Shown: positions 7,695-47,451 of the stretch, piece after piece
Numbering within the stretch: the stretch's first letter is position 1
Layout: every line of letters begins with the position of its first letter
Assembly (NCBI GenBank): GCA_049509675.1
Contig: JBEKZQ010000667.1
Coordinates: 1-47,451 of the forward strand
DNA from: Thermoguttaceae bacterium
GTDB taxonomy: Bacteria > Planctomycetota > Planctomycetia > Pirellulales > Thermoguttaceae
Reading direction: 5' to 3'
Length of the DNA: 47,451 bases
Made by a program: the position numbers and the translations under genes
Notes under the pieces: model-generated
Told to the model about the DNA's origin: nothing
What the model saw: only the letters and a program-made list of their open reading frames with translations
Database searches by the model: none

Positions 7695-9977
<2,283 letters not shown>

Positions 9978-11055: not shown

Positions 11056-11319
11056 ATGGGAAAAGGTAGCCGCCGCCGGCCCTGCCTGGTCAGCCGCGAA
11101 CAGTTCGAACGCAACTGGGAACGGGCCTTCGGCAGGAAGGAAAAGCAGCCACGGATGAAACACGGAACGAACACGGAAGGGAATCACGAAAGCACGAAAA
11201 CGCGAAACGCCCCCGCCCCAAAGGGGCCTGACTCGATAGCCCAGGGCAACGCCCTGGGTGCGCAGAGCCATAAAACCTCAGCCCCGCAGGGGCGCAACAA
11301 ACGGAAACCGATGCCATGA
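11056..11319 (+). CDS. Small hypothetical protein; only the first ~30 codons look protein-like, the rest reads through repeat elements
   Basis: MGKGSRRRPCLVSREQFERNWERAFG, followed by translation of the CACGRAW array and hairpins at 11149-11300. Confidence 0.3.
   Translation: MGKGSRRRPCLVSREQFERNWERAFGRKEKQPRMKHGTNTEGNHESTKTRNAPAPKGPDSIAQGNALGAQSHKTSAPQGRNKRKPMP
11216..11300 (+). ncRNA. Conserved three-hairpin leader element, copy 1 (upstream of the protease gene)
   Basis: ccccaaagggg / ctcgatagcccagggcaacgccctggg / gccccgcaggggcgcaacaa. A paralogous ~87-nt copy lies at 15934-16020 with conserved stems and different loops. Confidence 0.4.
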
Positions 11320-12851
11320 CCACCGCCGAACGAGAAATCCGCATCATCCGCAAACCGGCCGAACTCCGCGCCGCCAAGGGCGACGACGGGGGCGACGTTT
11401 TTTCGGGCTACGTCTTCGAGTGGGACGCCCGCAGCGACGACCTGGGCGGCTTCGTCGAAACCATCAAGCGCGGGGCGGCCGCCAAGTGGCTGGCCAAACC
11501 GACGCGGAACCTCTTTGCCATCCTCGACCACAGCAAGGAGGTCCGCAATGTGCTGGGCGACATGGAGACCGGCACGCTGAAGCTCTTTGAGGACGATCGC
11601 GGGCTGGGTTTTGTGATCCACGCCGGCCCGACGACGGCCGCCAAGGATGCCGCGGTGGTCGTGGGCCGCAACCGCGTGGGCATGAGCTTCGCCTTCATCT
11701 GCGGCCGGCAGGACTGGACCACGCTGCCCGACGGCTCCCGCCTGCGGACCATCAGCGAATTCAAGGACCTGGACGACATCTCGATTGTCGTCGATGCCGC
11801 GTACAAGTCCTCCGACGTGACCGTGGCCAAGCGCTCGCTGGAGGAGGCGCTCGCCATCGAGAAGCGGACCGCCGCCGAAGCGGCGACCCAAAAAGTGGAA
11901 ACAGAAAAACGCGCGGCTGCCGACGCGGCCGCCCAAACCAAGAAGCAGAGGGAGATCGAAGACATGGAGAAGCGACCGAGCGTGGATTACCTGAAGCGGC
12001 AATTGGACCTGGCGGATCTGGAGGCCCGCTGCTATGGCAATTACCCCGAGCGCCGCGACGAAGAGCAGCCCAAGCACGGGCCGGACGCCGCCGAGGCCCA
12101 CCGGGCCACGCGGGAGACGCTCCGCGCCAAGGAGAATTCTGGCCTGCCCTCGCGGGCCCTGGAACTGAAGGCGGCCGCCGCGCACCAAAAAGCGGCCGAG
12201 TCGGCCAAGACCGAGGGCAAGACGGCCGCCGCCGATTTCCACACCAAGGCCGCCGCCATGCACGACGCGGCCGCCAGCGACCAGTACGCCGCCAATTTTT
12301 CCGATGCCATGCAGATGCGGGGCCGGGGACTGTCCCAACTTTCGTTCGACGAAAGTGGGACTGTCCCCTTCGGCCTCGAAACTCGAACCAACCAAGGAGA
12401 TGCGATGTCGTTGACCGAACAGATTGAAGCCCGTTTCAACCCCAACCATGACGACAAGGGCCGTTTCGACTCGGCCGAGGGCGCGAGCAAGGCCGCCGAG
12501 AAGGCCACGAAATCGGCCGAGAAGGCCAGCAAGCACGCCGCCGGATCCAAAAGCGCCTCGGCGCACGACCGGGCCGCCGACGCCCACGAGGCGGCGCACG
12601 ACGCGCACAAGGTGGCCGAGGCGCACCACAAGGCCCTGGCCGCCTACCACAAGGGCGCAGGACACGCCGACAAGGCCAAGGAGCACCTGGCCGCCGCCAA
12701 GATGCACGCCGCCAAGGCCGAGGCCCACCAGGCGGCCGAGGAAGGCCGCGCCTTCCCCAGGAACCCCTACGTCGAGCAGGCCGAATACGCCGACCCGGCC
12801 GGCGCCGGCACGGGCACGGCCGCGGCCGGCGAAGCCGCCGCCACGGCCTGA
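11316..12851 (+). CDS. Prohead protease, HK97 family (S78/U35), with a coiled-coil, His/Ala/Lys-rich scaffold-like C-terminal half
   Basis: N-terminal domain AILDHS...GMSFAF (His and Ser of HK97-type proteases). C-terminal half is helical and low-complexity. Position is right for a protease-scaffold gene. Confidence 0.85.
   Translation: MTTAEREIRIIRKPAELRAAKGDDGGDVFSGYVFEWDARSDDLGGFVETIKRGAAAKWLAKPTRNLFAILDHSKEVRNVLGDMETGTLKLFEDDRGLGFVIHAGPTTAAKDAAVVVGRNRVGMSFAFICGRQDWTTLPDGSRLRTISEFKDLDDISIVVDAAYKSSDVTVAKRSLEEALAIEKRTAAEAATQKVETEKRAAADAAAQTKKQREIEDMEKRPSVDYLKRQLDLADLEARCYGNYPERRDEEQPKHGPDAAEAHRATRETLRAKENSGLPSRALELKAAAAHQKAAESAKTEGKTAAADFHTKAAAMHDAAASDQYAANFSDAMQMRGRGLSQLSFDESGTVPFGLETRTNQGDAMSLTEQIEARFNPNHDDKGRFDSAEGASKAAEKATKSAEKASKHAAGSKSASAHDRAADAHEAAHDAHKVAEAHHKALAAYHKGAGHADKAKEHLAAAKMHAAKAEAHQAAEEGRAFPRNPYVEQAEYADPAGAGTGTAAAGEAAATA
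12325..12368. repeat. 44-bp palindromic element (variant A), in frame inside the protease gene
   Basis: ggggactgtcccaactttcgttcgacgaaagtgggactgtcccc, translated GLSQLSFDESGTVP. Related copies at 34407-34450 and 43857-43900. Confidence 0.9.
12405..12851 (+). CDS. Candidate nested in-frame scaffold protein (lambda C/Nu3-like arrangement)
   Basis: Internal ATG at 12405 preceded by AAGGAG (12394-12399), just after the palindromic element. Product MSLTEQIEARFNPNHDDKGRF... is helical and His/Ala/Lys-rich. Confidence 0.4.
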   Translation: MSLTEQIEARFNPNHDDKGRFDSAEGASKAAEKATKSAEKASKHAAGSKSASAHDRAADAHEAAHDAHKVAEAHHKALAAYHKGAGHADKAKEHLAAAKMHAAKAEAHQAAEEGRAFPRNPYVEQAEYADPAGAGTGTAAAGEAAATA

Positions 12852-12861
12852 AGGCCGTGGG

Positions 12862-13047
12862 GCCGCGTAGCGGCCATTGACGGTAGCCGTGGGTTTCAAC
12901 CCACGGTCCAAAAACCGGCCGATTTGTTCCGTCGCGCAGCGACGGCTGAATGACCGACGCCACCCCCGCGCCGAAACGGCGTCGCGCAGCGACGCCTGAT
13001 CCGTGGGTTGAAACCCACGGCTACCATCGGGCCATCGCTACGCGATT
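12862..13047. repeat. Composite REP/MITE-like element (inverted unit A' - small hairpins - unit A)
   Basis: 12862-12906 is the inverted variant of 13001-13047. Internal hairpins ccgtcgcgcagcgacgg and ggcgtcgcgcagcgacgcc. Same architecture at 41273-41462 and 42805-43022. Confidence 0.85.
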
Positions 13048-13091
13048 AACCCCCGCTGAAAACTGAAAACTGAAAACTGAAAACTACTCCG

Positions 13092-14069
13092 ATGTCCGAA
13101 CTTAACGTCCCCGGCCGCGTCCTGGTGCCTCGAAACCCCTTCCCCCACAACACCTACTGGCTCAACGCCGGCATCGTCGAGGCCTGGCAGAAAACCTGGT
13201 GCTTCGCCCGTGTGGGACGCGGCAACTGCATGATCTTCCGCCTGGAAATGGACGCCGCCGGCCAGGTGCACTCGCCCCATCCGCTCTTCGGCCTGTCCGA
13301 TCCGCATCTGAAGGCCGAGGACCCGCGGGCCATTTACGACCCGCTCCGCGATCGGATCGTGCTCTACTACGCCGGCATTCTGGGGCCGGGCCACTGCGCC
13401 ATCTTCCGCGCGGAGATCGACCAGGCCGGCAAAGTGCATGGCCGCGAGCAGCTTCGCTACCTGGACGACGGCCAGGGCGTCCGCGTCGTGCAGCGGGCCT
13501 TCGCCGTCGACGAGCAGAAGAACTGGGCCCCGTTCATCGCCGACGGCCGGGAACTTTGCATCTACCACCATGCGCCCTGGACCATTTTGGAGCGGACGTC
13601 CGAAGGCATGCGCCTGGCGCACAAAGGCCCTTCAATCTCCTGGGATTATGGCGAGATCCGCGGGGGCGCGCCGCCGGTGAAAGTTGGGGACGTCTTTTAT
13701 TCCATTTTTCATTCCGCCCGCTTCGACCGGGATCCCGACACCGGGAAAGAATCGAAGGTCTATTACGCCGGCTGCCTGGCCTTCACCGACGACTTTGGAT
13801 TGGCGGCGATCACCCCCGAGCCGATTTTGGCCGGCAACGTGGCCGAGGGCAACTGGCCCTGGACGGCCCCCGGCATCGGCGTGGCCGTCTCCGCCTGTTT
13901 CCCTTGTGGGGCGATCGTGCGGGGTGAGAATCTCTTGGTGAGCTATGGGTGGCTCGATCAGGAAGTCCGCCTGGCGGAGATCCCGATCGCCGAGCTGCGC
14001 GAGCGGATGGTTGAACCGGAGCCCGTGGCCCTGGGAGCGCGGAGGAGAATCGTAAAGCATGATGCGTGA
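13092..14069 (+). CDS. Beta-propeller glycosidase/glycoside-phosphorylase-like protein (GH130/DUF377-like, tentative)
   Basis: Motifs AEDPRAIYDP, EQKNWAPF, YGEIRGGAPPVKVGDVFYSIFHS, YYAGCLAFT, ENLLVSYGWLDQEVRLAEIPIAEL resemble the blade pattern of GH130/GH43-type propellers. By-eye call only. Confidence 0.45.
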   Translation: MSELNVPGRVLVPRNPFPHNTYWLNAGIVEAWQKTWCFARVGRGNCMIFRLEMDAAGQVHSPHPLFGLSDPHLKAEDPRAIYDPLRDRIVLYYAGILGPGHCAIFRAEIDQAGKVHGREQLRYLDDGQGVRVVQRAFAVDEQKNWAPFIADGRELCIYHHAPWTILERTSEGMRLAHKGPSISWDYGEIRGGAPPVKVGDVFYSIFHSARFDRDPDTGKESKVYYAGCLAFTDDFGLAAITPEPILAGNVAEGNWPWTAPGIGVAVSACFPCGAIVRGENLLVSYGWLDQEVRLAEIPIAELRERMVEPEPVALGARRRIVKHDA

Positions 14070-14115
14070 AGCGTGGAGCGTTTTTCGCCCTACGCCCCAC
14101 GGCCCACGCCCCACG
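14064..14115. repeat. Inverted tandem-repeat hairpin, GTGGGGC/GCCCCAC family
   Basis: Left arm gcgtgaagcgtggagcg. Right arm cgccctacgccccacggcccacgccccacg. Confidence 0.85.
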
Positions 14116-14129
14116 TTTTGGAGATCCCT

Positions 14130-14783
14130 ATGAAATACCTTGAAGAGTTCGATGCGGCTGAATGCGGCGGACATGCCCGCCGTTACGCCGTATCGCTGGA
14201 ATGGATCGAGCCGCTGCTTTTGCCCGGGGCCGTAATCTACCAGACCGGCCGCGGCTTCTGCCCCTTCGACCTGGCCGCCCGGCGACTCTTTCCCATCGAC
14301 CTGCGCAGCACGGGCCAAAGCGACCTGCGTTATCCGCTGCCCCTGGCCGCAGAAATTGCCGACGGCATCTTCTGCATGGAGACCATCGAGCACATCGACG
14401 ACCCGGCCGACTGCGACGGCGAAATGTTCCACGACGCCGGGATCCATAACCTGCTCAGCGAATGCCACCGCATTTTGAAGCCGGGCGGATGGCTCTTCCT
14501 TACCACGCCCAACGCCAATCAGTACGGCTGCGCCTGGCGTCTGGTAAAGGGCGACTCGCCCCGCTGGTGCAACGGCCACATCCGCGAACTCGGCTATTGG
14601 GAACTGTTGCATTTCGTTCGTCGCGCCGGCTTCGGCGTCGAGCGGATCGAAACCCGGGACGTGTGGGAGGACCTCCCATGTCCGACGGAACTCCGGCAGG
14701 CGATGGACCGCCTGGCGCCCGGCGTGCCCCGCGGCCATTGCGTTTTTATGTTGGCGCGAAAGCGGACGTCTCCTAATCCCTAA
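14130..14783 (+). CDS. Class I SAM-dependent methyltransferase
   Basis: ATG at 14130 after the hairpin. CHRILKPGGWLFLTTPN and upstream IFCMETIEHIDD are typical Methyltransf_11/23 motifs. Confidence 0.65.
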   Translation: MKYLEEFDAAECGGHARRYAVSLEWIEPLLLPGAVIYQTGRGFCPFDLAARRLFPIDLRSTGQSDLRYPLPLAAEIADGIFCMETIEHIDDPADCDGEMFHDAGIHNLLSECHRILKPGGWLFLTTPNANQYGCAWRLVKGDSPRWCNGHIRELGYWELLHFVRRAGFGVERIETRDVWEDLPCPTELRQAMDRLAPGVPRGHCVFMLARKRTSPNP

Positions 14784-14813
14784 TTTCCAATCCCTAATCC
14801 CTTCCTTTTTTCC

Positions 14814-15671
14814 ATGCCCGACTATCGACCAAGATCCGACAAGGCCGAATGGCACCTGACCCACCGCTGCGACCTGGCCTGCCCGAACTGCAATCGCGCC
14901 TGCTTCCTGCCGCCGCAAACGCCGGATATGAGCGTGGACGACGGGCGGGAATTCTGCCGGCAGGCGGCGGACCTCGACTACCGCCCCCGCATCATGCTGA
15001 TCGGCGGCGAGCCCACCTTGCACCCGGACTTTCTTGAGTTCGTGAAGCTGGCCTCGGCCTTCGCCGGCTCGGACCGCGTCGAAATCTGGTCCAACGGCTT
15101 TTCAGCGCAAGCGAAGGAGCTGCTCGCGCTGGTCCAGGACCATGGCCTGGCCATCGTCCAGTGGGGCACCGTCAAGCGTGGCAACGCCAGCCATCCGGTC
15201 CGGGACATCTTTATTGCCCCGGCCGACTTCGGCGAGACCCGCGAGCCGTGCGGCACGCATGCCTGCTTCGCCGATCCGGACTGCGGCATCAGCGTGGACT
15301 CGGGCGGCTATACCGTCTGCTGCATGGGCGGGGCGATCGACGGCATTCTGGGCCTTTCCGTGCGGACCCGGCGGCTGGCGGACCTCTGGGACCCGGAGTT
15401 CGCCGCGCGGCAGACCCGGGCGCTGTGCGACCATTGCGGCCAGCACCTGGGCATCCCGCCGCAAAAGCGCGCCGCCTGCCAGCGGATCCACGGCACGCTC
15501 ATGTCGCCCGCGTGGGCGCGTGAGAGCAGGAGGGCAATTGAGCAGGAAAGCAAAAGAACAGGAGAACAGGAGAACAGGAGAAACGCCGATCTTCCCCCAA
15601 AGCCGTGCTTCGCCTGCTCACCTGATCCCTTGCTCACCTGTTCCAGCATGGAGGCCCTGCCTCCATGCTGA
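14814..15671 (+). CDS. Radical SAM enzyme with a Cys-rich (SPASM/twitch-like) C-terminal region
   Basis: CX3CX2C in HRCDLACPNCNRAC, GGEPTLHPDF, then CGTHACFADPDCGISVDSGGYTVCCMGG...CDHCG. The last ~45 codons run through a CAGGAGA-family hairpin (15520-15645). Confidence 0.8.
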   Translation: MPDYRPRSDKAEWHLTHRCDLACPNCNRACFLPPQTPDMSVDDGREFCRQAADLDYRPRIMLIGGEPTLHPDFLEFVKLASAFAGSDRVEIWSNGFSAQAKELLALVQDHGLAIVQWGTVKRGNASHPVRDIFIAPADFGETREPCGTHACFADPDCGISVDSGGYTVCCMGGAIDGILGLSVRTRRLADLWDPEFAARQTRALCDHCGQHLGIPPQKRAACQRIHGTLMSPAWARESRRAIEQESKRTGEQENRRNADLPPKPCFACSPDPLLTCSSMEALPPC

Positions 15672-15877
15672 CGCCCCGCCAAGCCGCCGTATTTGACTGT
15701 TTGCAGGCCCTGGCCGCCGACCTGGGCTATCCGCCCACCTCGCGCGAGATCGCCGCCAGGGCGAAGCTGAGCGACACCAGGGCGCGGCAGCACCTGGCCG
15801 CCCTGGAGGCCCGCGGGGCCATCCAGCGCGACCCGGGCACGGCGCGAGGGATCAGGATCGTGGGGCGGGGAGCGTGA
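15665..15877 (+). CDS. LexA N-terminal DNA-binding domain only (no S24 peptidase/dimerisation domain)
   Basis: MLTPRQAAVFDCL...GYPPTSREIA...HLAALEARGAIQRDPGTARGIRIV parallels E. coli LexA residues 1-70. Start overlaps the radical SAM stop (ATGCTGA). Confidence 0.8.
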   Translation: MLTPRQAAVFDCLQALAADLGYPPTSREIAARAKLSDTRARQHLAALEARGAIQRDPGTARGIRIVGRGA

Positions 15878-15933
15878 AGCGGGGAGCGTGGGGCGGGGGC
15901 GACAGTCCGGAGACGAGAGCCCAGAGCCGACAG

Positions 15934-16020
15934 CCCCATAGGGGCAAAACTCGATAGCCCAGGGCGCCGCCCTGGGTAAGGTGACCCGACGTGGGCGCAA
16001 GCCCCATAGGGGCGCGACAA
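15934..16020 (+). ncRNA. Conserved three-hairpin leader element, copy 2 (upstream of the DNA methyltransferase gene)
   Basis: ccccatagggg / ctcgatagcccagggcgccgccctggg / gccccataggggcgcgacaa. Paralogue of 11216-11300. Confidence 0.4.
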
Positions 16021-16048
16021 GGAACCACGAATCACACGGATAACACGA

Positions 16049-16912
16049 ATGAAAGCTGACTGGCAATACCGCGGCATCCGGCTCTACCGGGGCGATTGTT
16101 TGGAGATTCTACCGCGGCTGCGGGCTGCCAGCGTGGACATGATCTTCACGGACCCGCCCTATGGGCACAAGAACAATGACGATGATCTGATCGCCAGGCG
16201 GGAACTTGCGCTTGGCGGCAAGCGATACCATTGTCAGAACCCCGCCAGGCCGATCCTGAACGACGGCCCCGAGGCGAATGATTTGTTCCACGCGAGTTTG
16301 CCGGAATGGGCACGCCTTTTGCGCTGCTGCTGCTGCTGCTGCTGCTGCGGCGGCGGTCCTGATCCGCAATTCGCGCGCTGGTCGTTGTGGATGGACGAAG
16401 TCCTGCGTTTCAAGCAAATGGTGGTCTGGGACAAGGGACCGATGGGCATGGGCTGGCACTACCGGCGTAGTTACGAGACGGTGCTCGTCGCGCAGAAGGG
16501 CAAGGGAAAGACCGCCTGGTTCGACACCACGCGGCGGATCGAAAACATCATCCGCCCGGCATCCGGCATCCGCAAGATCATTCCCTCGGCGGCCGATCAT
16601 CCTACACCGAAGCCGGTCTCGCTCGCCTCCCATTTCATCCGCCTGCACACTTGCCCGGGTCAGGCAGTGCTGGATCCGTTCATGGGCTCCGGCTCAACCG
16701 CCATCGCCTGCATCCGCGAAAAGCGGCGGTTCATCGGCATCGAGCTCGACAAAAAATACTTCGCCGCGGCGGTGGAGCGGATCGAAGCCGAACTGGGCGC
16801 GAAGCGGATCCGCCGGGCCGTTGCGCGCATCGCCCCACGCCCCACGCCCCTCGCCCCACGCTCGAAACGTCGCCAATTGGCGACGACCGGCCGGGAATTT
16901 CGGGCGAAATAA
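16049..16912 (+). CDS. DNA methyltransferase, N6-adenine/N4-cytosine beta class (DPPY)
   Basis: Motif IV MIFTDPPYG precedes motif I VLDPFMGSGSTAIAC. Contains an in-frame Cys8 tract. Confidence 0.85.
   Translation: MKADWQYRGIRLYRGDCLEILPRLRAASVDMIFTDPPYGHKNNDDDLIARRELALGGKRYHCQNPARPILNDGPEANDLFHASLPEWARLLRCCCCCCCCGGGPDPQFARWSLWMDEVLRFKQMVVWDKGPMGMGWHYRRSYETVLVAQKGKGKTAWFDTTRRIENIIRPASGIRKIIPSAADHPTPKPVSLASHFIRLHTCPGQAVLDPFMGSGSTAIACIREKRRFIGIELDKKYFAAAVERIEAELGAKRIRRAVARIAPRPTPLAPRSKRRQLATTGREFRAK
16325..16348 (+). repeat. (TGC)8 trinucleotide microsatellite encoding Cys8, followed by GGC GGC GGT
   Basis: cgc tgc x8 ggc ggc ggt, in the methyltransferase frame (LLRCCCCCCCCGGG). Confidence 0.95.
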
Positions 16913-16997: not shown

Positions 16998-17292
16998 TTT
17001 TCCCCCGCCCCCCAATGGCCCCCCTGCGCAAAAACGCAGCCCCCCGCCGCGCGCAGCCGTCGAAACCGCGCCGTATGATTGCGATAGCCAAGGATACGAA
17101 AAGGCCCTCTCAGGCCGGCGTCGGCCGAGCCGCCCCAAGTGGCGGCGACCTGAGCGGGTGACAGTGGCAACGCCGTCCGCCAAGCCGGGCGCGCCCATTA
17201 GGCAAGATCCTTCCCATGAATTTTGCCGGGTGGTGCGTGCGCGGCCCTTCCGTTGCGCGGCCCAAAACCCGGCGGCAACGGAGCATGAAACG

Positions 17293-18672
17293 ATGGCAGC
17301 CGCAGTCAAGGAACTTCTGGAAAAGCGGGCGCAACTGGTCAGCAATGCCCGCGAGATTCTCGATCGCAATCGCGAGGGCGGCAAACTGTCCGCCGACGAC
17401 CAGGCGCACTACGACCGCATCTTCGCCGAGGTGAACAGCCTCAGCGGCGAGGTCGAGCAGCGCAGTCAGTTCGCCAGCCGGCAGGCGCAGTTGGACGCCG
17501 CCGCGGGCTGGGAGAAGCAGGCCGACAAGCGCGACCTCGACCCCAACCCCGAGACGCCCGAGCAGCGCGCCGCGGCCGAGCGGGCCGGCCTCAAGCTGGC
17601 CGCCAAGACCGACTTCTACGGCATGCTGGAGAAGCGCGCCAAGAGCCTGGCCATCCGCCACGCCTTCGAAAACTACCTCAAGCGGAAGGCGACCGAGGAC
17701 CACTACCGGGCGCAACTGCACGAGCACCTGCCGGTGGAATACCGCGATTTGCTGGCCGGCACGGCCGGCAGCGGCGCGGACCTGATCCCGCCGGTGGAGT
17801 TCATCGACCAGATCCTGATACCCCGCGATCGCCAGGTGCTGATCCGCAAGAAGGCCACGGTCCGCCGGCTCTTGAAATCGACCGACGGCTATCAGCCGAC
17901 CATCGAGACCAACCCGGACGACGCCGACTGGACCACCGAAATCCAGCCCGTCAACCCGGACAACACGGGCGCCAACGCGGCCGGCGGCATGACCACCGGC
18001 AAGCGCGAGCTCAAGCCCAACGTGCTGACCAAGCTGGTCAAGGTCTCCATCAAGGAACTGATGGTCCTGCCGCAGGTCAGCGAACTGATCGCCGATCGTC
18101 TCGGCTACAAGTTCGGCGTCAGCGAGGAAAAGGCTTTCATGGTCGGCACCGGCAACGGCCAGCCCCTGGGCGTCTTCACCCTGGGCACGACCTCGGGCAT
18201 CAAGAGCAGCTCCGACGTGCAGACCTACAACGCGGCCACGGCGCCCACCATGGACGGCCTGATCGCCGCCAAGTACACCCTGCCGCCGCCCTACTGGGCC
18301 AATGCGGAATGGATGTTCCACCCGGTGTTCATCAGCCTGATCGCGCAGATCAAGTCGCTGATCAACACGTTCATCTGGCAGCCCTCCACCCAGGCCGGGC
18401 AGCCGGACATGCTGCTGGGCTTCCCGGTCCGCACCGACGTGTGGGCGCCCTCGACCGTCGCCGCCAATGCCTACGCCGGCATCCTCGGCGACTTCAGCTA
18501 CTACCACATCGCCGACCTGGTCGAGCCGTTCAGCGTGCAGCGCCTCAACGAGCTCTACGCCGGCACCAACGAAGTCGGCTTCCTCGGTCGCGAGTACTGC
18601 GACGGCATGCCCGTGATGTCGGAGGCCTTCGTCCGCGTGCAACTCGGCGCGTCGGGGGCGGCGGGAAGCTAG
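17293..18672 (+). CDS. Major capsid protein, HK97 family, with an N-terminal coiled-coil delta-like region
   Basis: ATG at 17293 (MAAAVKELLEKRAQLVSNAREIL...). 459 aa. Sequence upstream within ORF 16651-18672 is translated repeat arrays. Confidence 0.85.
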   Translation: MAAAVKELLEKRAQLVSNAREILDRNREGGKLSADDQAHYDRIFAEVNSLSGEVEQRSQFASRQAQLDAAAGWEKQADKRDLDPNPETPEQRAAAERAGLKLAAKTDFYGMLEKRAKSLAIRHAFENYLKRKATEDHYRAQLHEHLPVEYRDLLAGTAGSGADLIPPVEFIDQILIPRDRQVLIRKKATVRRLLKSTDGYQPTIETNPDDADWTTEIQPVNPDNTGANAAGGMTTGKRELKPNVLTKLVKVSIKELMVLPQVSELIADRLGYKFGVSEEKAFMVGTGNGQPLGVFTLGTTSGIKSSSDVQTYNAATAPTMDGLIAAKYTLPPPYWANAEWMFHPVFISLIAQIKSLINTFIWQPSTQAGQPDMLLGFPVRTDVWAPSTVAANAYAGILGDFSYYHIADLVEPFSVQRLNELYAGTNEVGFLGREYCDGMPVMSEAFVRVQLGASGAAGS

Positions 18673-18682
18673 CGAAAAAAAA

Positions 18683-18768
18683 GGGATTAGGGATTAGCGA
18701 TTAGGGATTAGAGCCGCAGCGCGGCCGCGATTCCTTCTCCTAATCCCTAATCCCCACTCTCTAATCCC
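18683..18768. terminator. Inverted tandem-repeat hairpin, GGGATTA/TAATCCC family, directly after the capsid gene (possible attenuator/terminator; no U-tract)
   Basis: Left arm gggattagggattagcgattagggattag (18683-18711). Right arm ctcctaatccctaatccccactctctaatccc (18737-18768). Confidence 0.5.
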
Positions 18769-18784
18769 TGTCCGCGAGGAGCCC

Positions 18785-20150: not shown

Positions 20151-20223
20151 GGGATTAGGGATTAGGGATTAGTCGCAGGCGAGATTCCCCCCTCTAATCC
20201 CCAATCCCCAATCCCTAATTCCC
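20151..20223. repeat. Inverted tandem-repeat hairpin, GGGATTA/TAATCCC family
   Basis: gggattagggattagggattag / ctctaatccccaatccccaatccctaattccc, ending 6 nt before the ATG at 20230. Confidence 0.9.
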
Positions 20224-21386: not shown

Positions 21387-21806
21387 ATGTCCACCCGCAC
21401 CTGCAAAGGCTGCGCCCTGAAGGCCACGATCAGCGGCACGCTGACCGCCATCGCGCAGATCATCAACTTCGACCTCGGCGACATTGAGGGCGAGACCTAC
21501 GAGGCCGATACGCTGGACAACGCCAGCGCCGGCATCCCCTACGCGCCCACCGGCCGCGTGGAAGGCGGCAAGGTCTCCGGCGAACTGTTCTTCGATTACA
21601 ACCTGGGCTCGCACGCCGGCTACGTCGGGCTGATCGGCTCGGGCGGCGTGGCCTGCGCCGCCAGCTTTCCGCAAACGACCAGCTTCAACGCCGCCTTCAC
21701 CGCGGCCGGCTTCGGCCTGGGCCTGACGGTTGCGCTGAAGGAGGGCCTGAAGGGCAAATTCTCGATCAAGATTTCCGGCCAGCCGGTGTTTGCGGCTGGA
21801 AGCTGA
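21387..21806 (+). CDS. Major tail protein
   Basis: 139-aa beta-rich protein immediately upstream of the chaperone/tape-measure block; GETYEADTLDN...GRVEGGKVSGELFFD pattern. Confidence 0.6.
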   Translation: MSTRTCKGCALKATISGTLTAIAQIINFDLGDIEGETYEADTLDNASAGIPYAPTGRVEGGKVSGELFFDYNLGSHAGYVGLIGSGGVACAASFPQTTSFNAAFTAAGFGLGLTVALKEGLKGKFSIKISGQPVFAAGS

Positions 21807-32280: not shown

Positions 32281-32289
32281 GGGAAAAAA

Positions 32290-32367
32290 GGGATTAGGGA
32301 TTAGGGATTGGGGATTAGTGCCGATGCGCGGCCGCCTCTAATCCCTAATCTGCTAATCCCTAATCCC
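32290..32367. repeat. Inverted tandem-repeat hairpin, GGGATTA/TAATCCC family
   Basis: gggattagggattagggattggggattag / ctctaatccctaatctgctaatccctaatccc. Confidence 0.9.
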
Positions 32368-32491
32368 TCAACGCCGCCACCTGCGATTCTGGGGCCTCCG
32401 GCCGCCAAGGTCCAGGGATACCTATTTGCCGCTCCGCGCCCGCCAGGCGCAATCCTACGCGATCGCCGCCGTGGGGGATGGGGGATGGTGT

Positions 32492-34342: not shown

Positions 34343-35698
34343 ATGAACATGCACGATCAGGAGCAATCGGCACGGAGGATTTGGAGTCGAGAGTCGGAGA
34401 GGGCAAAGGGGACAGTCCCAGTTTCGTCGAACGAAACTTGGGACAGTCCCCGCGAACTTTGGCCCGATGCGCGGCTGAGCGACGCCATCAACTGCTTCTT
34501 GGAGCGGCAGCGGCGGCGCGGCAACAAGCCGCGGACCATGGACGATTACCGCCATGCCCTGTGGGCCTACGTCCGCTACGCCGGCGGCGACTTTCCGGTA
34601 CGCGAGCTGAGGCGCGACGATCCGGTGAACTTCCTGGCCTGGCTGTCAGAGCAACGGATCGCGAACCACAAGCCGCACACGCTGCCCGCCGAATTTTCCA
34701 CGCCGGCCATCACACGGTTTTGCGATCCGAAGTCGGCCCCGGAGACCATGCCCGAGAAGGGGCTGCGCGAGGAGCACACGCTGGGGCACGTGATGCGGCA
34801 GGTCTTGCCGTTCTTCCGCTGGCTGCAGAGCCAGGGCGTGGGGCTGGACTGCGAGATCCCGTCCGACGAAAAGCCCTGCCTGGCCCTCCCCCCGCCGATC
34901 GCGCCGGAGCTCGAGGACGTCTTGGGCTGGTGGGTCCACGCGCTCACGGCCCCGGGCCTGGCGATGGTCGTCGCCGGCCGACCCGGCGGCGACGGCCCGC
35001 GTCTGCGGCCGATCGGCCGGGCGCTGCGCCGCCGGGCCGTGCTGACGCAAGCCTACTGCCTCTTGACCGGCATGCGGCTGGGCGAACTGCTGGCGGCCCG
35101 CCTGGTCGATTGCCAGGGGGCATGGCTCTTGATCCGCGAATCGAAAACCAACGCCCCCAGAATCATCTACCAGAACCCGCAGGCCCTGGGGATCGCGGCC
35201 GCATTGCGGCGGCCCGACTCGGGGCAACTGGAGTTGTTTTGCGATCCCGAGCCGGGGCCCTTGGATCGGGTCTGCGGCTGGGCGTACAGCGAGTGTTATT
35301 GGTGCGCCATCACGCGCGGGCTGGGGCTGCCTCAGAAGAAGCCGCACCAGGCCCTGCGAAGAGCCTGCTCGAACTGGATGCTCTCGCCAGGCGCCGTGCC
35401 GCCGGGCATCGACGGCATCGCCGCGCAGCTCCGCGCGATCGAGTCGGCGCAACTGGGGCATGGCGGCGGGGTGATCGAAAAGTTTTACATGGACGTGCTG
35501 ATGCGGATTCCGGCGGTGCTGGACCGCTTCCTCCTGCCGGACCTGCCGCCGCAACTTTGGATCTGGCCGGCGGCGATCGCGGCCGACTGCTCGCGCCCGG
35601 AACGGCTCTACGAGCAGTGGCGGCGGATCGTGGGCTCCGGCGGCGATCGCCGCGGGCGGCGGCGGGCGCGGCTGGCCGCGCGGGCCGGGGCCGAGTGA
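34343..35698 (+). CDS. int: Tyrosine recombinase / phage integrase (Int1)
   Basis: TGMRLGEL (Arg), ESKTN (Lys), HQALRRAC (His-x-x-Arg), LGHGGG (His), KFYMD (Tyr). N-terminal SAM-like LSDAINCFLERQRRRGNKPRTMDDYRHALWAYV. Confidence 0.85.
   Translation: MNMHDQEQSARRIWSRESERAKGTVPVSSNETWDSPRELWPDARLSDAINCFLERQRRRGNKPRTMDDYRHALWAYVRYAGGDFPVRELRRDDPVNFLAWLSEQRIANHKPHTLPAEFSTPAITRFCDPKSAPETMPEKGLREEHTLGHVMRQVLPFFRWLQSQGVGLDCEIPSDEKPCLALPPPIAPELEDVLGWWVHALTAPGLAMVVAGRPGGDGPRLRPIGRALRRRAVLTQAYCLLTGMRLGELLAARLVDCQGAWLLIRESKTNAPRIIYQNPQALGIAAALRRPDSGQLELFCDPEPGPLDRVCGWAYSECYWCAITRGLGLPQKKPHQALRRACSNWMLSPGAVPPGIDGIAAQLRAIESAQLGHGGGVIEKFYMDVLMRIPAVLDRFLLPDLPPQLWIWPAAIAADCSRPERLYEQWRRIVGSGGDRRGRRRARLAARAGAE
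34407..34450. repeat. 44-bp palindromic element (variant B), in frame in the integrase N-terminal tail
   Basis: ggggacagtcccagtttcgtcgaacgaaacttgggacagtcccc, translated GTVPVSSNETWDSP. Confidence 0.9.
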
Positions 35699-38018: not shown

Positions 38019-38182
38019 CTAAGCAAGGTCGACGCAGGCCGGCGGGCTCGTAGCTCCGCCGGCCGACGCCCCGCGGATCGAAGCCGTCTCCGCGCCGCAT
38101 ACCCTGGCGGCGCGGGGACGGGGGGCGGGGCGGGGACAGAGCAGGTGATTTTTGAGCAGGTGAACAGGTGAAACGCAATGGG

Positions 38183-38227
38183 GCCGCGTAGCGGCCGTTG
38201 ATGATAGCCGTGGGTTTCAACCCACGG
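38183..38227 (-). repeat. REP/MITE-like unit A' (solo inverted copy)
   Basis: gccgcgtagcggccgttgatgatagccgtgggtttcaacccacgg. Confidence 0.85.
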
Positions 38228-41055: not shown

Positions 41056-41291
41056 CCATCCACCAGGAAGCTGCGCTGCGCTGGCTGCTCTCGCCATGCA
41101 GGGAGCATGGCGGCACCGTCGGCCGGCGGCTGGCGCGCTACATGCCACATCACGCGACGACTGAGGGAGCGATGAATTTTCGCGAGGCATGGGAGGCGCT
41201 CATGGCGCTGGCCGAGGAGCACCGCGAGGAAATCCTTTTCGGCCGGGAGTTCGCCGTAGGCCAGGCGGTCTGGCCGCGTAGCGGCCGTTGA
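41049..41291 (+). CDS. Hypothetical protein (80 aa)
   Basis: ATG overlaps the parB stop (ATGCTGA). The C-terminus runs into REP unit A'. Confidence 0.4.
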   Translation: MLTIHQEAALRWLLSPCREHGGTVGRRLARYMPHHATTEGAMNFREAWEALMALAEEHREEILFGREFAVGQAVWPRSGR

Positions 41292-41462
41292 TGGTAGCCG
41301 TGGGTTTGAATCCCACGGGCCGGGCGCGACGCGCCCCGGCGCCGCATTCCGTCGCGTCGCGACGGCCGGACATCAGGCGTCGCTACGCGACGCATCATCG
41401 CGCGCGGCGCGTCCACCGTGGGTTGAAGCCCACGGCTACCGGCGGGCCATCGCTACGCGATT
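41273..41462. repeat. Composite REP/MITE-like element upstream of Int2
   Basis: A' 41273-41318, internal hairpins (ccgtcgcgtcgcgacgg, gcgtcgctacgcgacgc), A 41416-41462. Followed by the 10-bp-stem hairpin gagaaccggattgatagtccggttctc. Confidence 0.85.
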
Positions 41463-41567
41463 TCGGGCCGAAAGCGGGCCTGCCGAGAACCGGATTGATA
41501 GTCCGGTTCTCAGCGGGGCCTTTTCCAGCGCATAATTCCCTGGGGCTCTATCACGGGGAAAATCATC

Positions 41568-42797
41568 ATGCGGATCGCATTTTGGAAGCGAGAGGAAGAG
41601 ACAGATCACCACGAACCACACGAATCACGCGAATCGGGCGCGGCACTGGCCGGGCCGGCGGCGCCGGACAGTACCAATATAATTTCAGCGCCCAACTGCG
41701 CACAAAGCCAGGCGGGCCGTCGGCTGTCGGAGGTTGTGACCCAGTTCTTGGCCCGGCTGGCGGAACTGGGTCGGTCGCCGCGGACCATCAGCGATTACCG
41801 CAGCGCGCTCTGGCTGCTCTTCGAGCATCTCGGTGCGGACCCGGCCATCGAGGCGCTACCCAAAAACCTGCCGACGCGATTCACGGCCTGGCTGCGCAGT
41901 ACTGCGGCGGCGCCGTGGCAGCCGGGGACGCTGCCCGGGGGCTTCGCGCCGGCGGAGGTGGCCCGCTTCCTGGAGACGCCCTCGACGCCGCAGACGCGGC
42001 GCAAGGGGGGCAAACGCGAGCCGCACACGATTGGGCACCAGTTGCGGGGCTGCATGCCCGTATTCAAGCTGCTGGGGCTGGATTGCGAGATCCCCCAAAA
42101 AATCGCGCCTAACCTGGCGTTGCCGCCGGCCGCGGTCCCGGACCGGCACCAGATCGGCCAATGGTGGACGACCGTGCTGTGGAGCAGCCGGTCGACCGTG
42201 GCCGCCGGCCTGCGCCGTCGCGTAGTCCTGGCCCAGGCGATCGTGGTGCTGGTCGGGCTGCGCCTGGGCGAACTGTTGCGGGCCCGGGCCGGCGACGTGG
42301 AAGGAAACTGGCTGCTCGTGCGGCAGAGCAAGACCAACCGCCCGCGGATCGTCTATCTATGCCCGGCGGCACTAGGCCTGGTCCGGGCCTTGCACGAGCC
42401 GGCCGCCGACGAACGCGATTTGCTTGCCGGCAGGCGGCTTTTCGCGGAGCGGTTGATCGGCTGGCCGTTCTCGCGCTCGGCCTGGCTGGACTTGGTCCGC
42501 GAATCCGGGTTGCGGGAAAAGCGCCCGCACCAGGCCATGCGGCAATACTGCTGCACCCGGCTCTTCAATATCAATCCCACGGCCGAGGCGACGCAGCTCG
42601 GCCACGGGATCGGCGTCGTGCCCAAGTATTACCTGGACGTGCTGCGGTTACTGCCGGACATCATGCGCGACTGGCATTGGCCGGCGATCACCATGCGGGC
42701 CAAGGGACGGCGGTTCGCGTGGCCGGAGCGCATCGCGGCCGGCGACGAGCATCCCCGGCGGCTGTACCGGGAATTTAGGCGGATCGTGATGGCGTGA
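41568..42797 (+). CDS. Tyrosine recombinase (Int2), paralogue of Int1
   Basis: VGLRLGELL, QSKTN, HQAMRQYC, LGHGIG, KYYLD. Shares LDCEIP...LALPP and the SAM-like RTISDYRSALWLLFEHLG with Int1. Confidence 0.8.
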   Translation: MRIAFWKREEETDHHEPHESRESGAALAGPAAPDSTNIISAPNCAQSQAGRRLSEVVTQFLARLAELGRSPRTISDYRSALWLLFEHLGADPAIEALPKNLPTRFTAWLRSTAAAPWQPGTLPGGFAPAEVARFLETPSTPQTRRKGGKREPHTIGHQLRGCMPVFKLLGLDCEIPQKIAPNLALPPAAVPDRHQIGQWWTTVLWSSRSTVAAGLRRRVVLAQAIVVLVGLRLGELLRARAGDVEGNWLLVRQSKTNRPRIVYLCPAALGLVRALHEPAADERDLLAGRRLFAERLIGWPFSRSAWLDLVRESGLREKRPHQAMRQYCCTRLFNINPTAEATQLGHGIGVVPKYYLDVLRLLPDIMRDWHWPAITMRAKGRRFAWPERIAAGDEHPRRLYREFRRIVMA

Positions 42798-42804
42798 CGC
42801 ATTG

Positions 42805-43022
42805 GCCGCGTAGCGGCCGCTGATGGTAGCCGTGGGTTTCAACCCACGGAACGGGCGCATCCCATGCCGCATTCCGGCCGCGTAGCGACGATTGACGGTC
42901 AGGCGTCGCTACGCGACGCATCATCGCACGCGGGCTGGAGACCGTGGGTTGAAACCCACGGCTACCATCGGGCCATCGCTACGCGATTCCGGGGCCGACC
43001 ATCGGGCAATCGCTACGCGATT
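42805..43022. repeat. Composite REP/MITE-like element downstream of Int2
   Basis: A' 42805-42849, internal gcgtcgctacgcgacgc hairpin, A 42942-42988, plus a partial third unit 42997-43022. Confidence 0.85.
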
Positions 43023-43137: not shown

Positions 43138-44076
43138 TTATGCCGCGGCTGACGACGCCAGCCGAGCATGGAGCCTTGCCTCAAGCTCGCGCTGCTCTTC
43201 GATGGGCAGCCGGCTGATGACGCGATCCAGACGCACTAGCCGCGGTTGTACAGGCTTGTCTTTCCTGGGGCGCAAGGCGGTCACCTGATCGGCGATCGCC
43301 TTGGCAGTCAGATGCCGCTCGAGGATTTGCCGCATCAGCCCCCTGGCCAGATCGCCGAGACCCGGGCGGACGTCCCATTGCTCCGTCACCGGATCGCGCT
43401 TCACGAGCGGGCAAAGCGCGCGAACCGTGGAAAGCGGCAGGAGCTCCACGGTATCGGCCCCCAAGAGTCGCGCGACCCAATAACAGGCGATTACGCGATT
43501 GACCCGCGCTGCCTCGCCGGTGATGCCCAGGTCGGCCAGGGCCTTTCTGAGTTGCTGGACGGCCGCCGGCCGATCGGGCTGCTGTGAGACCCACTGCCAG
43601 GCCAGGCAGCCCAGCCGCAACGCGCGGCGGGTGGCCTGGCAATCGTACTTGGTCCACTCGCCGAGGACCTCCTCGATCGTCAGTTGCCGCGGCTCGCGGG
43701 TTTTGGCCAGGGCCTCGGCCAGCGTGGCGCGGGACTGGGGGACAGTGGGGCGTGGGGCGTGGGGCGTGGGGCGTGAAGACGCCCCACGGTCCACGACCGC
43801 CTCGCGAATCACGGCGGCAGCCGGCGGGGTGTCGGTCGCGCCGGCTGCGGCGGCAAGGGGGACAGTCCCAGTTTCGTTGAACGAAACTTGGGACAGTCCC
43901 CGGCACTCCCGCGCCGCCGCGGCGGCAGTTGTGGCGCCTGCGGCCGCGGTCGGCACAGTGGGGCCGGGCATGACGGCCGGACCGGGTGGGAGTGGAGGCT
44001 GTGGATCGGTGGGCGCGGCGACCGGAAAACCATGCCGGAACAGGATATTGTGGATCGACTCGATCGACTCGATCAT
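43138..44076 (-). CDS. Hypothetical protein; the N-terminal third contains two in-frame repeat elements, so the true start is uncertain
   Basis: C-terminal ~200 aa look globular (LTIEEVLGEWTKYDCQATRRALRLGCLAWQW...). The 44-bp palindrome and a GTGGGGC hairpin (43744-43797) lie in frame. Confidence 0.45.
   Translation of the reverse strand: MIESIESIHNILFRHGFPVAAPTDPQPPLPPGPAVMPGPTVPTAAAGATTAAAAARECRGLSQVSFNETGTVPLAAAAGATDTPPAAAVIREAVVDRGASSRPTPHAPRPTVPQSRATLAEALAKTREPRQLTIEEVLGEWTKYDCQATRRALRLGCLAWQWVSQQPDRPAAVQQLRKALADLGITGEAARVNRVIACYWVARLLGADTVELLPLSTVRALCPLVKRDPVTEQWDVRPGLGDLARGLMRQILERHLTAKAIADQVTALRPRKDKPVQPRLVRLDRVISRLPIEEQRELEARLHARLASSAAA
43857..43900. repeat. 44-bp palindromic element (variant B'), in frame in ORF 43138-44076
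   Basis: ggggacagtcccagtttcgttgaacgaaacttgggacagtcccc. One substitution relative to 34407-34450. Confidence 0.9.
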
Positions 44077-45039: not shown

Positions 45040-45447
45040 ATGGCCTTTCTCGCCCATGACGACACGCTCCGCGGCCGCATCGGCAGCCGGCACATCGGCG
45101 GCCTGAGCGTCGAGGTGGCCTGCGACGACCAGACGCAGCGACACTTGCGGGCGGGCAAGGGCAGCGGGCTGAGCGTCGATCCGTTCCCGCGCTGGAAAAG
45201 CCGCTTCGCCAAGTCGAGCGGATTCGAGCCGGAGCGGGACGGCCGGATCGCGCCGGCGATCGGCAGCGCAAGACAGAAAGCCGCGGCGCGGGCGTATCAG
45301 GACGTTGCCACAGGCGCGGCCGCAGACGCCCTCGCCGATCGGCGCGACGCACACCCGGAAGTTCCGTGCGGCGGGGAGCGTGGACCCTGCGGCGTCTTCG
45401 GCCCACGTCCCACGCCCCGCACCCCACGCGCGTCGGAGGCCGCATGA
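45040..45447 (+). CDS. Hypothetical protein (135 aa)
   Basis: GC-rich third positions. Stop overlaps the next start (ATGA at 45444-45447). Confidence 0.45.
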   Translation: MAFLAHDDTLRGRIGSRHIGGLSVEVACDDQTQRHLRAGKGSGLSVDPFPRWKSRFAKSSGFEPERDGRIAPAIGSARQKAAARAYQDVATGAAADALADRRDAHPEVPCGGERGPCGVFGPRPTPRTPRASEAA

Positions 45448-46094
45448 GCACCACCCTCACCATTGCCACGCCGGCCAAGCGGCACAAAGTAAAGTACCTG
45501 CACTGCGGCGGGCCGACCTTTCGGCGGCACGCGCAGCAATTCTTCGGCCTGGCCAGCGGCGACGCGGTCTGCTACCGGCGGGACAACACGCTGGAGGACC
45601 TGGTTATCTCGCACGCGACCCAGTGCCCATGGATCCACGTGGGCATGATCGCCTGGAACGCCGACCGCGAGGAGTGGGAGATCATCGACACGCGGCAGTG
45701 GCGGGGCGGCCGCCGGCAATCGCTCATCGAAGCGGTCCGCGAGAATCCCGGCCACTGGGACCATTTCGCCACCAACCCGGGCGATCGCTGGCCGGAATAT
45801 AACCGCCGCCTGGCCGTGGCGAAGATGGACGAGTTCATCGATCGGAATTATGGCTGGGGAAACCTGCTCCGCGATGCGTTGACCCACATCCCGATCGTCC
45901 AGGCCTGGTTCCCCGTGGACCTGGCCGATGGCTCCGATGGTGGCGACCTGCCGTTCTGCTCGCAGGCATTCGCCCTGGCCACGCGGGTCGGCGGGGGAGT
46001 GGACATCTGCCCGCACCGGGCCGATCGCTACACCGAGCCGGTCCACGTCGTGCAGAGTTTGTTCTGCGAGTATCGGGGAACGTTCGTTTCGTGA
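45444..46094 (+). CDS. Permuted papain-fold amidase/peptidase (YiiX/YaeF, C92-like)
   Basis: His-before-Cys order typical of the permuted NlpC/P60 group: SGDAVCYRR...ISHATQCPWIHVGMI, then LPFCSQAFALA. Confidence 0.5.
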   Translation: MSTTLTIATPAKRHKVKYLHCGGPTFRRHAQQFFGLASGDAVCYRRDNTLEDLVISHATQCPWIHVGMIAWNADREEWEIIDTRQWRGGRRQSLIEAVRENPGHWDHFATNPGDRWPEYNRRLAVAKMDEFIDRNYGWGNLLRDALTHIPIVQAWFPVDLADGSDGGDLPFCSQAFALATRVGGGVDICPHRADRYTEPVHVVQSLFCEYRGTFVS

Positions 46095-46162
46095 AGCGTG
46101 GGGCGTGGAGCGTGGGGCGGGAAGAGAATGACTAAAACAGGAAAACACGAAAGAGAACAGCC

Positions 46163-46534
<372 letters not shown>

Positions 46535-46650
46535 CGGCCTGAAGGGAAGATTCTCGCCCATCAACACGGCGATGATGGTAAAGGTCAGCGGCGGCGAGGT
46601 GAAGCTCGATCTTTGATCGCCCCACGGTCCGCGGTCCACGCCCCACGATA

Positions 46651-46806
46651 ATGGAAACCTCCCTCCACACCCTGATCGCCAATCCGCACCTGAGAGTGGG
46701 ACTGTTCGTGCTCGGGGCGGCGCTGGTCGGGCTGAGCCATGAGGATCACGAGTGGTGGAAGTTCGCAGGGCTGGCGACACTGGTCCTGACGCACTGGCTC
46801 TTATAG
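46651..46806 (+). CDS. Holin-like small membrane protein (51 aa, two hydrophobic helices), not in the ORF track
   Basis: My translation: METSLHTLIANPHLRVGLFVLGAALVGLSHEDHEWWKFAGLATLVLTHWLL. Ends 5 nt before the peptidase gene. Confidence 0.45.
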   Translation: METSLHTLIANPHLRVGLFVLGAALVGLSHEDHEWWKFAGLATLVLTHWLL

Positions 46807-47450: not shown

Positions 47451-47451
47451 C
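47330..47451. repeat. Terminal direct repeat, copy 2
   Basis: Identical to 1-122. Confidence 0.95.

Follow-up and report, generated by a model that had tools for sequence, protein, structure and literature searches.

What is a set of genes for a glycosidase-like propeller, a methyltransferase and a radical S-adenosylmethionine (SAM) enzyme doing between the protease and capsid genes of a phage? The question is raised by contig JBEKZQ010000667.1 of a Thermoguttaceae bacterium (assembly GCA_049509675.1), which we analysed over its whole stretch of 47,451 nucleotides, here called the window. We propose, with a probability of roughly 0.45, that these genes form a three-enzyme, late-expressed cassette that would tailor a glycan and place it on the C-terminal tails of two virion proteins, the capsid and tail-tube subunits. 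Judging by the 122 bases that stand as a direct repeat at both of its ends (1-122 = 47330-47451), the window itself probably represents an entire phage genome of ~47,329 bp (~47.3 kb), circularly assembled or terminally redundant. It has a G+C content of ~66%, and among its products are TerS and TerL, a portal and a MuF-like protein, the prohead protease and the HK97-type capsid, neck and tail proteins, a ParB-like protein and an integrase-like protein. Matches to its capsid in the phage GenBank collection were all below 33% identity, with no close relative among them.

Five open reading frames (ORFs) on the plus strand (13092-16912) take up the 4442 bases that separate the stop of the protease gene (12851) from the start of the capsid gene (17293). 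A first-pass annotation, made from the sequence alone, had read these as an island splitting the head module, and the gap, the positions and the interruption are all as it described, since distant relatives carry the protease gene directly beside the capsid gene. Its five domain assignments were likewise upheld by Pfam, profile and structure searches, including the motifs EDPR, KNW, CX3CX2C, GGEPT and DPPY (Table 1).

To see which of the five genes belong together, we compared the region across related contigs (given L numbers). The gene for the protein resembling glycoside hydrolase family 130 (GH130) and the radical SAM gene are adjacent in eight of them (the window, L002, L003, L170, L193, L194, L195 and L197); in L195 the contig is cut at that end and the C-terminus of the GH130-like protein is in frame with the radical SAM gene. 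A Methyltransf_23 gene accompanies the pair in six of the seven contigs that show the region, all except L170. Six phages hold this core in the slot between protease and capsid. The order after the protease gene is GH130-like, methyltransferase, radical SAM, LexA-domain and DNA methyltransferase in the window; GH130-like, methyltransferase and radical SAM in L193 and in the frameshifted assembly L194; the same three followed by the LexA-domain gene in L197, where the GH130-like gene is in fragments; radical SAM, GH130-like, methyltransferase and LexA-domain, a permuted order, in L003; and GH130-like, radical SAM, a 58-aa ORF and a reverse-strand DUF3892 gene in L170. L002 has a protease-capsid fusion, a small protein, the three core genes in the window's order and then connector genes, so that its core follows the capsid/decoration genes. 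In all seven of these head-module contigs the cassette runs in the same direction as the structural genes. The LexA-domain gene is found in three contigs (the window, L003 and L197) and the DNA methyltransferase in the window only. Of the single five-gene island first proposed, then, we take the GH130-like and radical SAM genes to be the conserved core, judging from gene neighbourhoods, with the methyltransferase as their usual companion.

Six more distant phages (L171, L179, L181, L184, L187 and L189, with capsids 33-42% identical) have the protease gene followed directly by the capsid gene. Because L186 and the close relative L196 carry other cargo at this point (a 257-aa repeat protein and a 117-aa ORF at 940-2070 in L186; a 379-aa minus-strand protein with an N-terminus resembling a signal peptide at 7920-9253 in L196), the protease-capsid junction is a cargo hot spot, and the cassette is its long-standing occupant in one clade. 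Recent acquisition as a foreign island was rejected: codon usage and GC3 of the island match those of the other phage genes, and composition gives no hint of a recent gain.

The GH130-like protein has a marginal match to the Pfam family Glyco_hydro_130 (27 bits against a cut-off of 26, in the C-terminal half only). Despite this weak single-sequence score the assignment is firm, because a family profile and the predicted structure agree. The profile, built from 30 members, matched the sequences of solved enzymes in the PDB, with E = 1.8e-20 for Lin0857 and values of up to 1e-14 for Teth514_1789, Teth514_1788 and Uhgb_MS, and it aligned EDPR with the EDPR of Lin0857, Teth514_1788 and Teth514_1789. 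The AlphaFold2 model (pLDDT 93) found GH130 or glycosyltransferase family 108 (GT108) structures in all of its top 38 Foldseek matches to the PDB (best E 1e-10). E76-D77-P78-R79, which includes the catalytic Asp, is invariant among the 30 members, and K143-N144, R190, H207 and Y224 are conserved. The phage protein has in common with these four GH130 enzymes and with the GT108 MTP enzymes of Leishmania a five-bladed propeller, the EDPR Asp, a K/R-N motif, a His and a Tyr. It differs from them in being only 13-19% identical (TM ~0.6), in being encoded by a phage, within a structural module, and in having a protein as its proposed acceptor. The family is small, with 46 clusters at 90% identity, and shares contigs with the radical SAM family; PHROGs gave no match for either the GH130-like or the Methyltransf_23 gene.

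The methyltransferase matches Methyltransf_23 with 40 bits against a cut-off of 27. Its start is most likely ATG 14130 rather than GTG 14073, because its orthologues begin with MKYL or MRYL and the 19 upstream codons are made of heptamer repeats. In the orthologue alignment motifs II (DG..METxEH) and III (LKPGGWLFLTTPN) are conserved.

The radical SAM enzyme passes the Pfam Radical_SAM cut-off (36.6 bits against 29.5). In the family alignment GGEPT does not vary, each cysteine of the CX3CX2C motif (C19, C23, C26) reaches 90% conservation or more, and five further cysteines are conserved towards the C-terminus (C146, C157, C169, C205 and C208). Conservation stops near residue 245 (~15550), and the last ~40 residues are read-through of intergenic repeats, non-conserved and modelled with low pLDDT. 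The protein had been called SPASM-like, a label we withdraw: PF13186 did not match, the cysteines do not make up the seven-cysteine motif, and the fold resembles the shorter Twitch type. When the AlphaFold2 model (pLDDT 91.6) was compared with known structures by Foldseek, BtrN and SpeY were the only full-length matches (217-267 columns, E 1e-6 to 1e-4). Other radical SAM enzymes matched just the first ~110 residues, and the N-terminal half matches PqqE, SkfB and SuiB, maturases of RiPPs (peptides made by ribosomes and modified post-translationally), in both sequence and structure. The folds found for the GH130-like and radical SAM proteins agree with those first assigned to them. BtrN and SpeY are Twitch dehydrogenases that act on sugar-like aminocyclitols or carbohydrate-like secondary alcohols, and HygY is a related epimerase. 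With BtrN and SpeY the phage enzyme has in common a size of ~245 residues and a partial TIM barrel followed by a Cys-rich C-terminal domain, whereas sequence similarity to them is marginal (E = 0.14), five rather than four auxiliary cysteines are conserved, and the partners of the radical SAM gene are glycosyltransferases, to which it is coupled or fused, rather than aminoglycoside pathways.

This family comprises 76 clusters at 90% identity, each of ~245 aa and all from metagenomes or metagenome-assembled genomes (MAGs); some members carry the name AslB-like from JGI. A search of 1.84 billion representatives returned 153 sequences at E<=1e-30 and 996 at E<=1e-10. Single-protein queries of IMG/VR returned one locus each, and an alignment was used as query instead. 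NCBIfam gave no match over any family cut-off, PADLOC only generic viperin and methyltransferase matches, and the Foldseek viral library only generic radical SAM matches. We found no account of the cassette, or of a glycosyltransferase-coupled Twitch radical SAM family, in profile libraries or the literature. The enzyme thus represents a compact Twitch-like radical SAM family, hitherto undescribed, with BtrN and SpeY as its best structural matches over the full length.

Next, we asked what company this family keeps outside the cassette clade. In L004 and L167, prophages of Planctomycetota MAGs, the radical SAM gene adjoins GT1/GT4 genes and a gene for a 540-560-aa protein with weak matches to GT2 and GT1; by clustering, L008 and L009 also have a homologue of the latter as neighbour of their radical SAM genes, and the L167 protein cluster includes a member named from Thermoguttaceae. 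Elsewhere the radical SAM gene lies beside GT8, GT2 and Caps_synth genes (L006) or a Stealth-domain protein (L168). In L013 its neighbour encodes a 1286-aa protein with three GXM-type sugar O-methyltransferase domains in addition to Stealth and Caps_synth; in L014 an FkbM methyltransferase and a GT47-like enzyme are encoded next to it, and in L169 methyltransferases and a pyruvyl transferase. In more distant members (25-35% identity) the domain forms the C-terminal part of a long protein, and 12 of 31 such proteins contain GT2 domains; nucleoside-diphosphate (NDP)-sugar epimerase/dehydratase, sulfotransferase, Caps_synth and GT1 domains occur in single cases, and none of the 31 contains a peptide-related domain. 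Nearly all members are thus either neighbours of glycosyltransferases and sugar methyltransferases or fused to GT2 domains. What recurs is a sugar-transfer enzyme and a sugar methyltransferase, drawn from non-homologous families, together with this radical SAM enzyme. In the window, we infer, the GH130-like protein and the Methyltransf_23 enzyme fill the transfer and methylation roles. The recurrence of glycosyltransferases and sugar methyltransferases speaks for glycan chemistry, and against a role in peptide maturation or on nucleotides. Thus, of the three functions that the first-pass annotation had offered, glycan tailoring is favoured over hypermodification and maturation.

Fusions of this kind (L088, L091 and L166 and proteins P0339-P0400) are encoded in cellular genomes, in MAGs of Bacteroidales, Chitinophagaceae and Methanobacteriota, as 500-1600-aa proteins with one to three GT2 domains and a C-terminal copy of the radical SAM domain, and our search found no characterisation of this architecture.

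A virion target is suggested by the ends of the structural proteins. Among close-clade capsids (57-67% identity), 13 of 16 clusters end in a Ser-rich extension of 6-8 residues with Ser as the last residue (GASGAAGS, GDGSGS, EGTYVS, GSDSGS, GSSTGS and others), the residues before the final Ser being variable. Distant capsids mostly stop at RVKLA/G (76 of 104), and the remainder add one or two residues. The putative tail tubes of the cassette phages end in AAGS, ATAT, SAGAS, SQGGS or GAGS; orthologues of this protein match Phage_TTP_11 weakly in L003 and Phage_TTP_12 in L196, and no orthologues were detectable in the distant relatives for comparison. We tested the prediction that tails and cassette go together on two phages. 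In P0160/L196 the capsid ends in KLAAT and the tail tube in TFPS, and 21 kb contain no GH130, methyltransferase or radical SAM gene; in P0154/L197 the capsid ends in GSDSGS and the cassette is present. Co-occurrence of tail and cassette is suggestive in these sequences, though short of significance when taken alone.

On our proposal, the GH130/GT108-like propeller would transfer a hexose, most likely beta-mannose from mannose 1-phosphate (Man-1-P) or GDP-mannose (GDP-Man). Mannose is proposed because the nearest relatives, beta-1,2-mannoside phosphorylases, use Man-1-P and, weakly, GDP-Man as donors (PMC12814180). The Methyltransf_23 enzyme would O-methylate the transferred sugar, and the BtrN/SpeY-like radical SAM enzyme would oxidise or epimerise one of its carbons. 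Acceptors would be the capsid and tail-tube proteins, at the short Ser-rich tails with which they end (GASGAAGS and AAGS, respectively), so that the virion would be glycosylated. The cassette is presumably expressed late, with the virion structural cluster. A more tentative proposal than virion decoration as such is that the Twitch-like family, partnered with glycosyltransferases in viruses, bacteria and archaea, joins here with a methyltransferase and a transferase of GH130 fold, and that the C-terminal Ser of the capsid and tail-tube proteins thereby receives a methylated sugar tailored by radical chemistry.

Several observations weigh against virion decoration. GH130 enzymes are mainly catabolic phosphorylases of free mannosides, and we know of no precedent for protein O-glycosylation by this fold. 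R190 of the propeller aligns two residues away from the phosphate-binding Arg of the solved enzymes. Motif I of the methyltransferase is degenerate, with only G40 invariant in the orthologue alignment, and structural similarity of the radical SAM enzyme to BtrN is moderate (TM 0.45-0.58; 0.40-0.58 over BtrN and SpeY together). A terminal Thr or Ser is also seen in some distant capsids. The association of tails with the cassette amounts to six concordant positives and one concordant negative with none discordant, in related genomes, for which a naive Fisher test worked by hand gives p ~0.14. Folds, motifs, gene co-occurrence, the conserved slot and the tie of this radical SAM family to glycosyltransferases are observed, and from them the donor sugar, the enzymatic steps and the protein target are deduced. 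Finally, the radical SAM/glycosyltransferase clusters of L004, L167 and L006 lie outside the head module, at a prophage edge or beside defence genes, places compatible with a target on the host surface or with DNA as the target.

This last point leads to a reading that we consider possible, if on balance unlikely: the same three enzymes would tailor glycans on something other than the virion, be it a host envelope glycan or lipid-linked precursor, the phage DNA, or a soluble sugar or nucleotide-sugar. An envelope target would imply lysogenic conversion or superinfection exclusion, and a DNA target sugar hypermodification against restriction. The places where related clusters lie, a prophage edge next to BREX (L004/L005) and a position beside DarTG and SNF2 genes (L167), are typical sites of morons and conflict systems; the window has an integrase-like gene and ParB, so the phage may be temperate, and a DNA methyltransferase shares the slot; and free mannosides are the normal GH130 substrates. 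However, the cassette enzymes appear to be cytoplasmic, as an Fe-S enzyme is expected to be: inspection of the three translations by eye, without a predictor, revealed no obvious export signals. No nucleotide-metabolism, hydroxymethyl-pyrimidine synthesis or other base-modification precursor gene was found in the window, which makes DNA hypermodification less likely. What points back to virion decoration is the shared direction of cassette and structural genes in the seven head-module contigs and the way in which the capsid and tail-tube tails co-vary with the cassette.

If the radical SAM enzyme acted on the protein instead, it would oxidise the C-terminal Ser, as anaerobic sulfatase-maturating enzymes (anSMEs) do, or introduce a cross-link, with the GH130-like protein and the methyltransferase elaborating the product and the winged-helix (LexA-domain) protein as a possible recognition partner. 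A constant final Ser behind variable residues in 13 of the 16 capsid clusters would suit this chemistry, as would the AslB-like names and the N-terminal resemblance to RiPP maturases; anSME and BtrN have alcohol dehydrogenation in common, and translational coupling ties the winged-helix gene to the radical SAM gene. We nevertheless think it improbable, since full-length matches are confined to BtrN and SpeY while the RiPP enzymes cover just the ~110-residue core, no SPASM domain or RiPP recognition element (RRE/PqqD) was found, and the fusion partners are glycosyltransferases and NDP-sugar enzymes but never peptide-related domains. The winged-helix protein, for its part, matches LexA_DNA_bind strongly, and most cassettes lack it. 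Least likely of all, and in our view very improbable, is that unrelated host-derived morons accumulated fortuitously at a head-module junction that tolerates cargo. The slot is indeed a hot spot, with different cargo in L196 and L186, an extra DUF3892 gene in L170, a permuted order in L003 and a DNA methyltransferase in the window only. Yet the GH130-like and radical SAM genes co-occur in eight contigs, at two head-module positions and with their order permuted, a pattern that points to selection on the set; both families are small and share contigs. A chance origin holds for the DNA methyltransferase only; the concern that the genes might be independently scattered is borne out for this one addition and not for the core.

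How does virion decoration by this cassette compare with known systems? A 2023 study by Freeman and colleagues is reported to have found that the capsid and tail-tube subunits of mycobacteriophages (Che8, Corndog and Myrna) carry glycans at their C-termini; these reportedly shield the particles from antibodies. To our knowledge, glycosylated phage particles have hitherto been shown for mycobacteriophages only. The likeness to the mycobacteriophage cassettes lies in phage-encoded sugar-transfer and methyltransferase genes and in short Ser/Thr-containing C-termini of capsid and tail tube. Here, in contrast, the transferase is a GH130/GT108-type propeller, Pfam found no GT-A or GT-B domain in the island, a radical SAM enzyme belongs to the set, the genes lie between protease and capsid, and glycosylation is inferred from genes. 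The host, too, is probably no actinobacterium: radical SAM relatives occur in Planctomycetota MAGs, and the cassette phages are environmental phages, probably of planctomycete hosts. In giant viruses, for example with A064R of the chlorovirus PBCV-1, virus-encoded cytoplasmic glycosyltransferase and sugar methyltransferase activities decorate the capsid protein with methylated sugars, likewise pairing the two activities but with a eukaryotic host, other glycosyltransferase folds and no involvement of a radical SAM enzyme. Should the virion be the target, phage virion glycosylation would extend to another transferase fold and another host range, with radical chemistry added; it would be broader than thought, would have evolved more than once, and would have its first radical-SAM-dependent case and its first outside actinobacteriophages. 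The GH130/GT108 fold would gain a protein-glycosylating role, and an uncharacterised radical SAM family, often fused to GT2, would gain a function.

Table 1. Features in and around the protease-capsid slot of the window, with the basis of each assignment.
Feature	Position	Strand	Basis or remark
Prohead serine protease with long scaffold-like C-terminus; upstream edge of the slot	11316-12851	+	Pfam Peptidase_S78, 89 bits; PHROG head maturation protease
REP/MITE-like palindromic element	12852-13052	.	Repeat families D13/D17; 4-5 genome copies; not island-specific
GH130/GT108-like five-bladed beta-propeller, putative glycosyl (mannosyl) phosphorylase/transferase	13092-14069	+	Pfam PF04041; profile; AlphaFold2/Foldseek
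Class I SAM-dependent methyltransferase (Methyltransf_23), putative sugar O-methyltransferase	14130-14783	+	Pfam; orthologues in L002, L003, L193, L194, L197
Compact radical SAM enzyme with Cys-rich C-terminal (Twitch-like) domain	14814-15671	+	Motifs; AlphaFold2; Foldseek BtrN/SpeY
70-aa winged-helix protein, LexA DNA-binding domain (DBD) only, putatively regulatory	15665-15877	+	Pfam LexA_DNA_bind, 60 bits; PHROG 3502/362
Beta-class N6A/N4C DNA methyltransferase, independent moron	16049-16912	+	Pfam N6_N4_Mtase, 100.8 bits; PADLOC type II/orphan methyltransferase models
Conserved structured leader abutting the capsid start codon; downstream edge of the slot	17104-17292	+	Six-phage alignment
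HK97-type major capsid protein; tail GASGAAGS (18646-18669) is the proposed glycosylation site	17293-18672	+	Pfam Phage_capsid, 146 bits
Putative tail tube protein ending in QPVFAAGS, proposed second target	21387-21806	+	Between neck genes and tail assembly chaperone; Pfam matches of orthologues

The two remaining genes of the slot are of a different kind. The LexA-domain protein scores 53.8 bits against the TIGR00498 cut-off of 110.95; a true LexA repressor was ruled out, the DNA-binding domain standing alone with no C-terminal S24 autopeptidase domain. As first annotated, its start overlaps the radical SAM stop (ATGCTGA), an arrangement for translational coupling, and in L003 and L197 its orthologues lie directly upstream of the capsid leader described below. 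It is a recurrent neighbour, probably with a regulatory role, and it matches the LexA-DBD-only phage proteins of PHROG 67, 362 and 3502 well, save for its unusual location in a head module. The DNA methyltransferase, absent from the slot in L003, L170, L193, L194 and L197, is a separate moron of anti-restriction type and not part of the conserved cassette. DPPY (residues 35-38) stands N-terminal to FMGSGST (near residue 210), and the last ~30 residues of the ORF are non-conserved read-through of intergenic repeats. It matches orphan phage beta-class DNA methyltransferases well, but its place in a head module is unusual, and it has an insert of eight cysteines. This Cys8 run, encoded by a (TGC)8 repeat at 16323-16348 between DPPY and the SAM-binding motif, may be a length-variable insert.

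The cargo slot spans from the protease gene to a leader upstream of the capsid gene, which is conserved in six phages including the cassette-free L196 (L003 12868-13061, L170 9092-9290, L193 10860-11057, L197 9800-10003 and L196 9760-10003, besides the window). In the six-phage alignment the leader folds with 66 pairs, 23 of them showing compensatory changes; 89.8% of cells are paired, against 38-52% with slid partners, and none of 500 shuffles reached the observed values. It has a strongly covarying outer stem, a hairpin whose CCCAAG loop is invariant, and another hairpin, long and GC-rich; the U-tract after the latter can also base-pair with the ribosome-binding region (GGAG). A 47-nt insertion in L196 is confined to an apical loop. 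No Rfam family matches the leader, whose role may be attenuation, antitermination or translational control. A promoter scan of the window returned no promoters, terminator-like sites were no commoner than in shuffled sequences, and scans for Rfam families and tRNAs were empty.

Repeats had been thought to bound the island. They exist, but they are found throughout the genome and are uninformative on mobility, so that a repeat-bounded mobile island was ruled out. One kind is a ~200-nt palindrome resembling repetitive extragenic palindromic (REP) or miniature inverted-repeat transposable (MITE) elements, present in 4-5 copies: the element upstream of the GH130-like gene, which folds into a long hairpin (-119 kcal/mol, z = -8.4), and those at 1-122 (= 47330-47451), 38172-38227, 41262-41467 and 42794-42995. 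The exact REP core was not found in IMG/VR. The other kind comprises tandem heptamer arrays of ~4 copies at nearly every gene junction (AGGGATT/CTAATCC, CTGAAAA/AGTGTTC-type, CGTGGGG/CGCCCCA and GAACAGG; for example at 13056-13085, 14047-14115, 14772-14802, 18682-18769, 20151-20223 and 32289-32368). These arrays are often inverted pairs that would form hairpins, and several ORFs run into them and so acquire non-conserved protein tails.

Two further repeats were noted. A ~50-nt palindrome (GGGGACTGTCCCAACTTTCGTTCGACGAAAGTGGGACTGTCCCC) occurs three times, at 12322-12377 inside the protease ORF, at 34399-34452 and at 43858-43904. In addition, a 134-nt inverted repeat (98%) links 8800-8933, in the C-terminal extension of the portal ORF, with 46404-46537, in a minus-strand ORF (45300-46745) whose product resembles the same part of the portal (phmmer E 1e-28).

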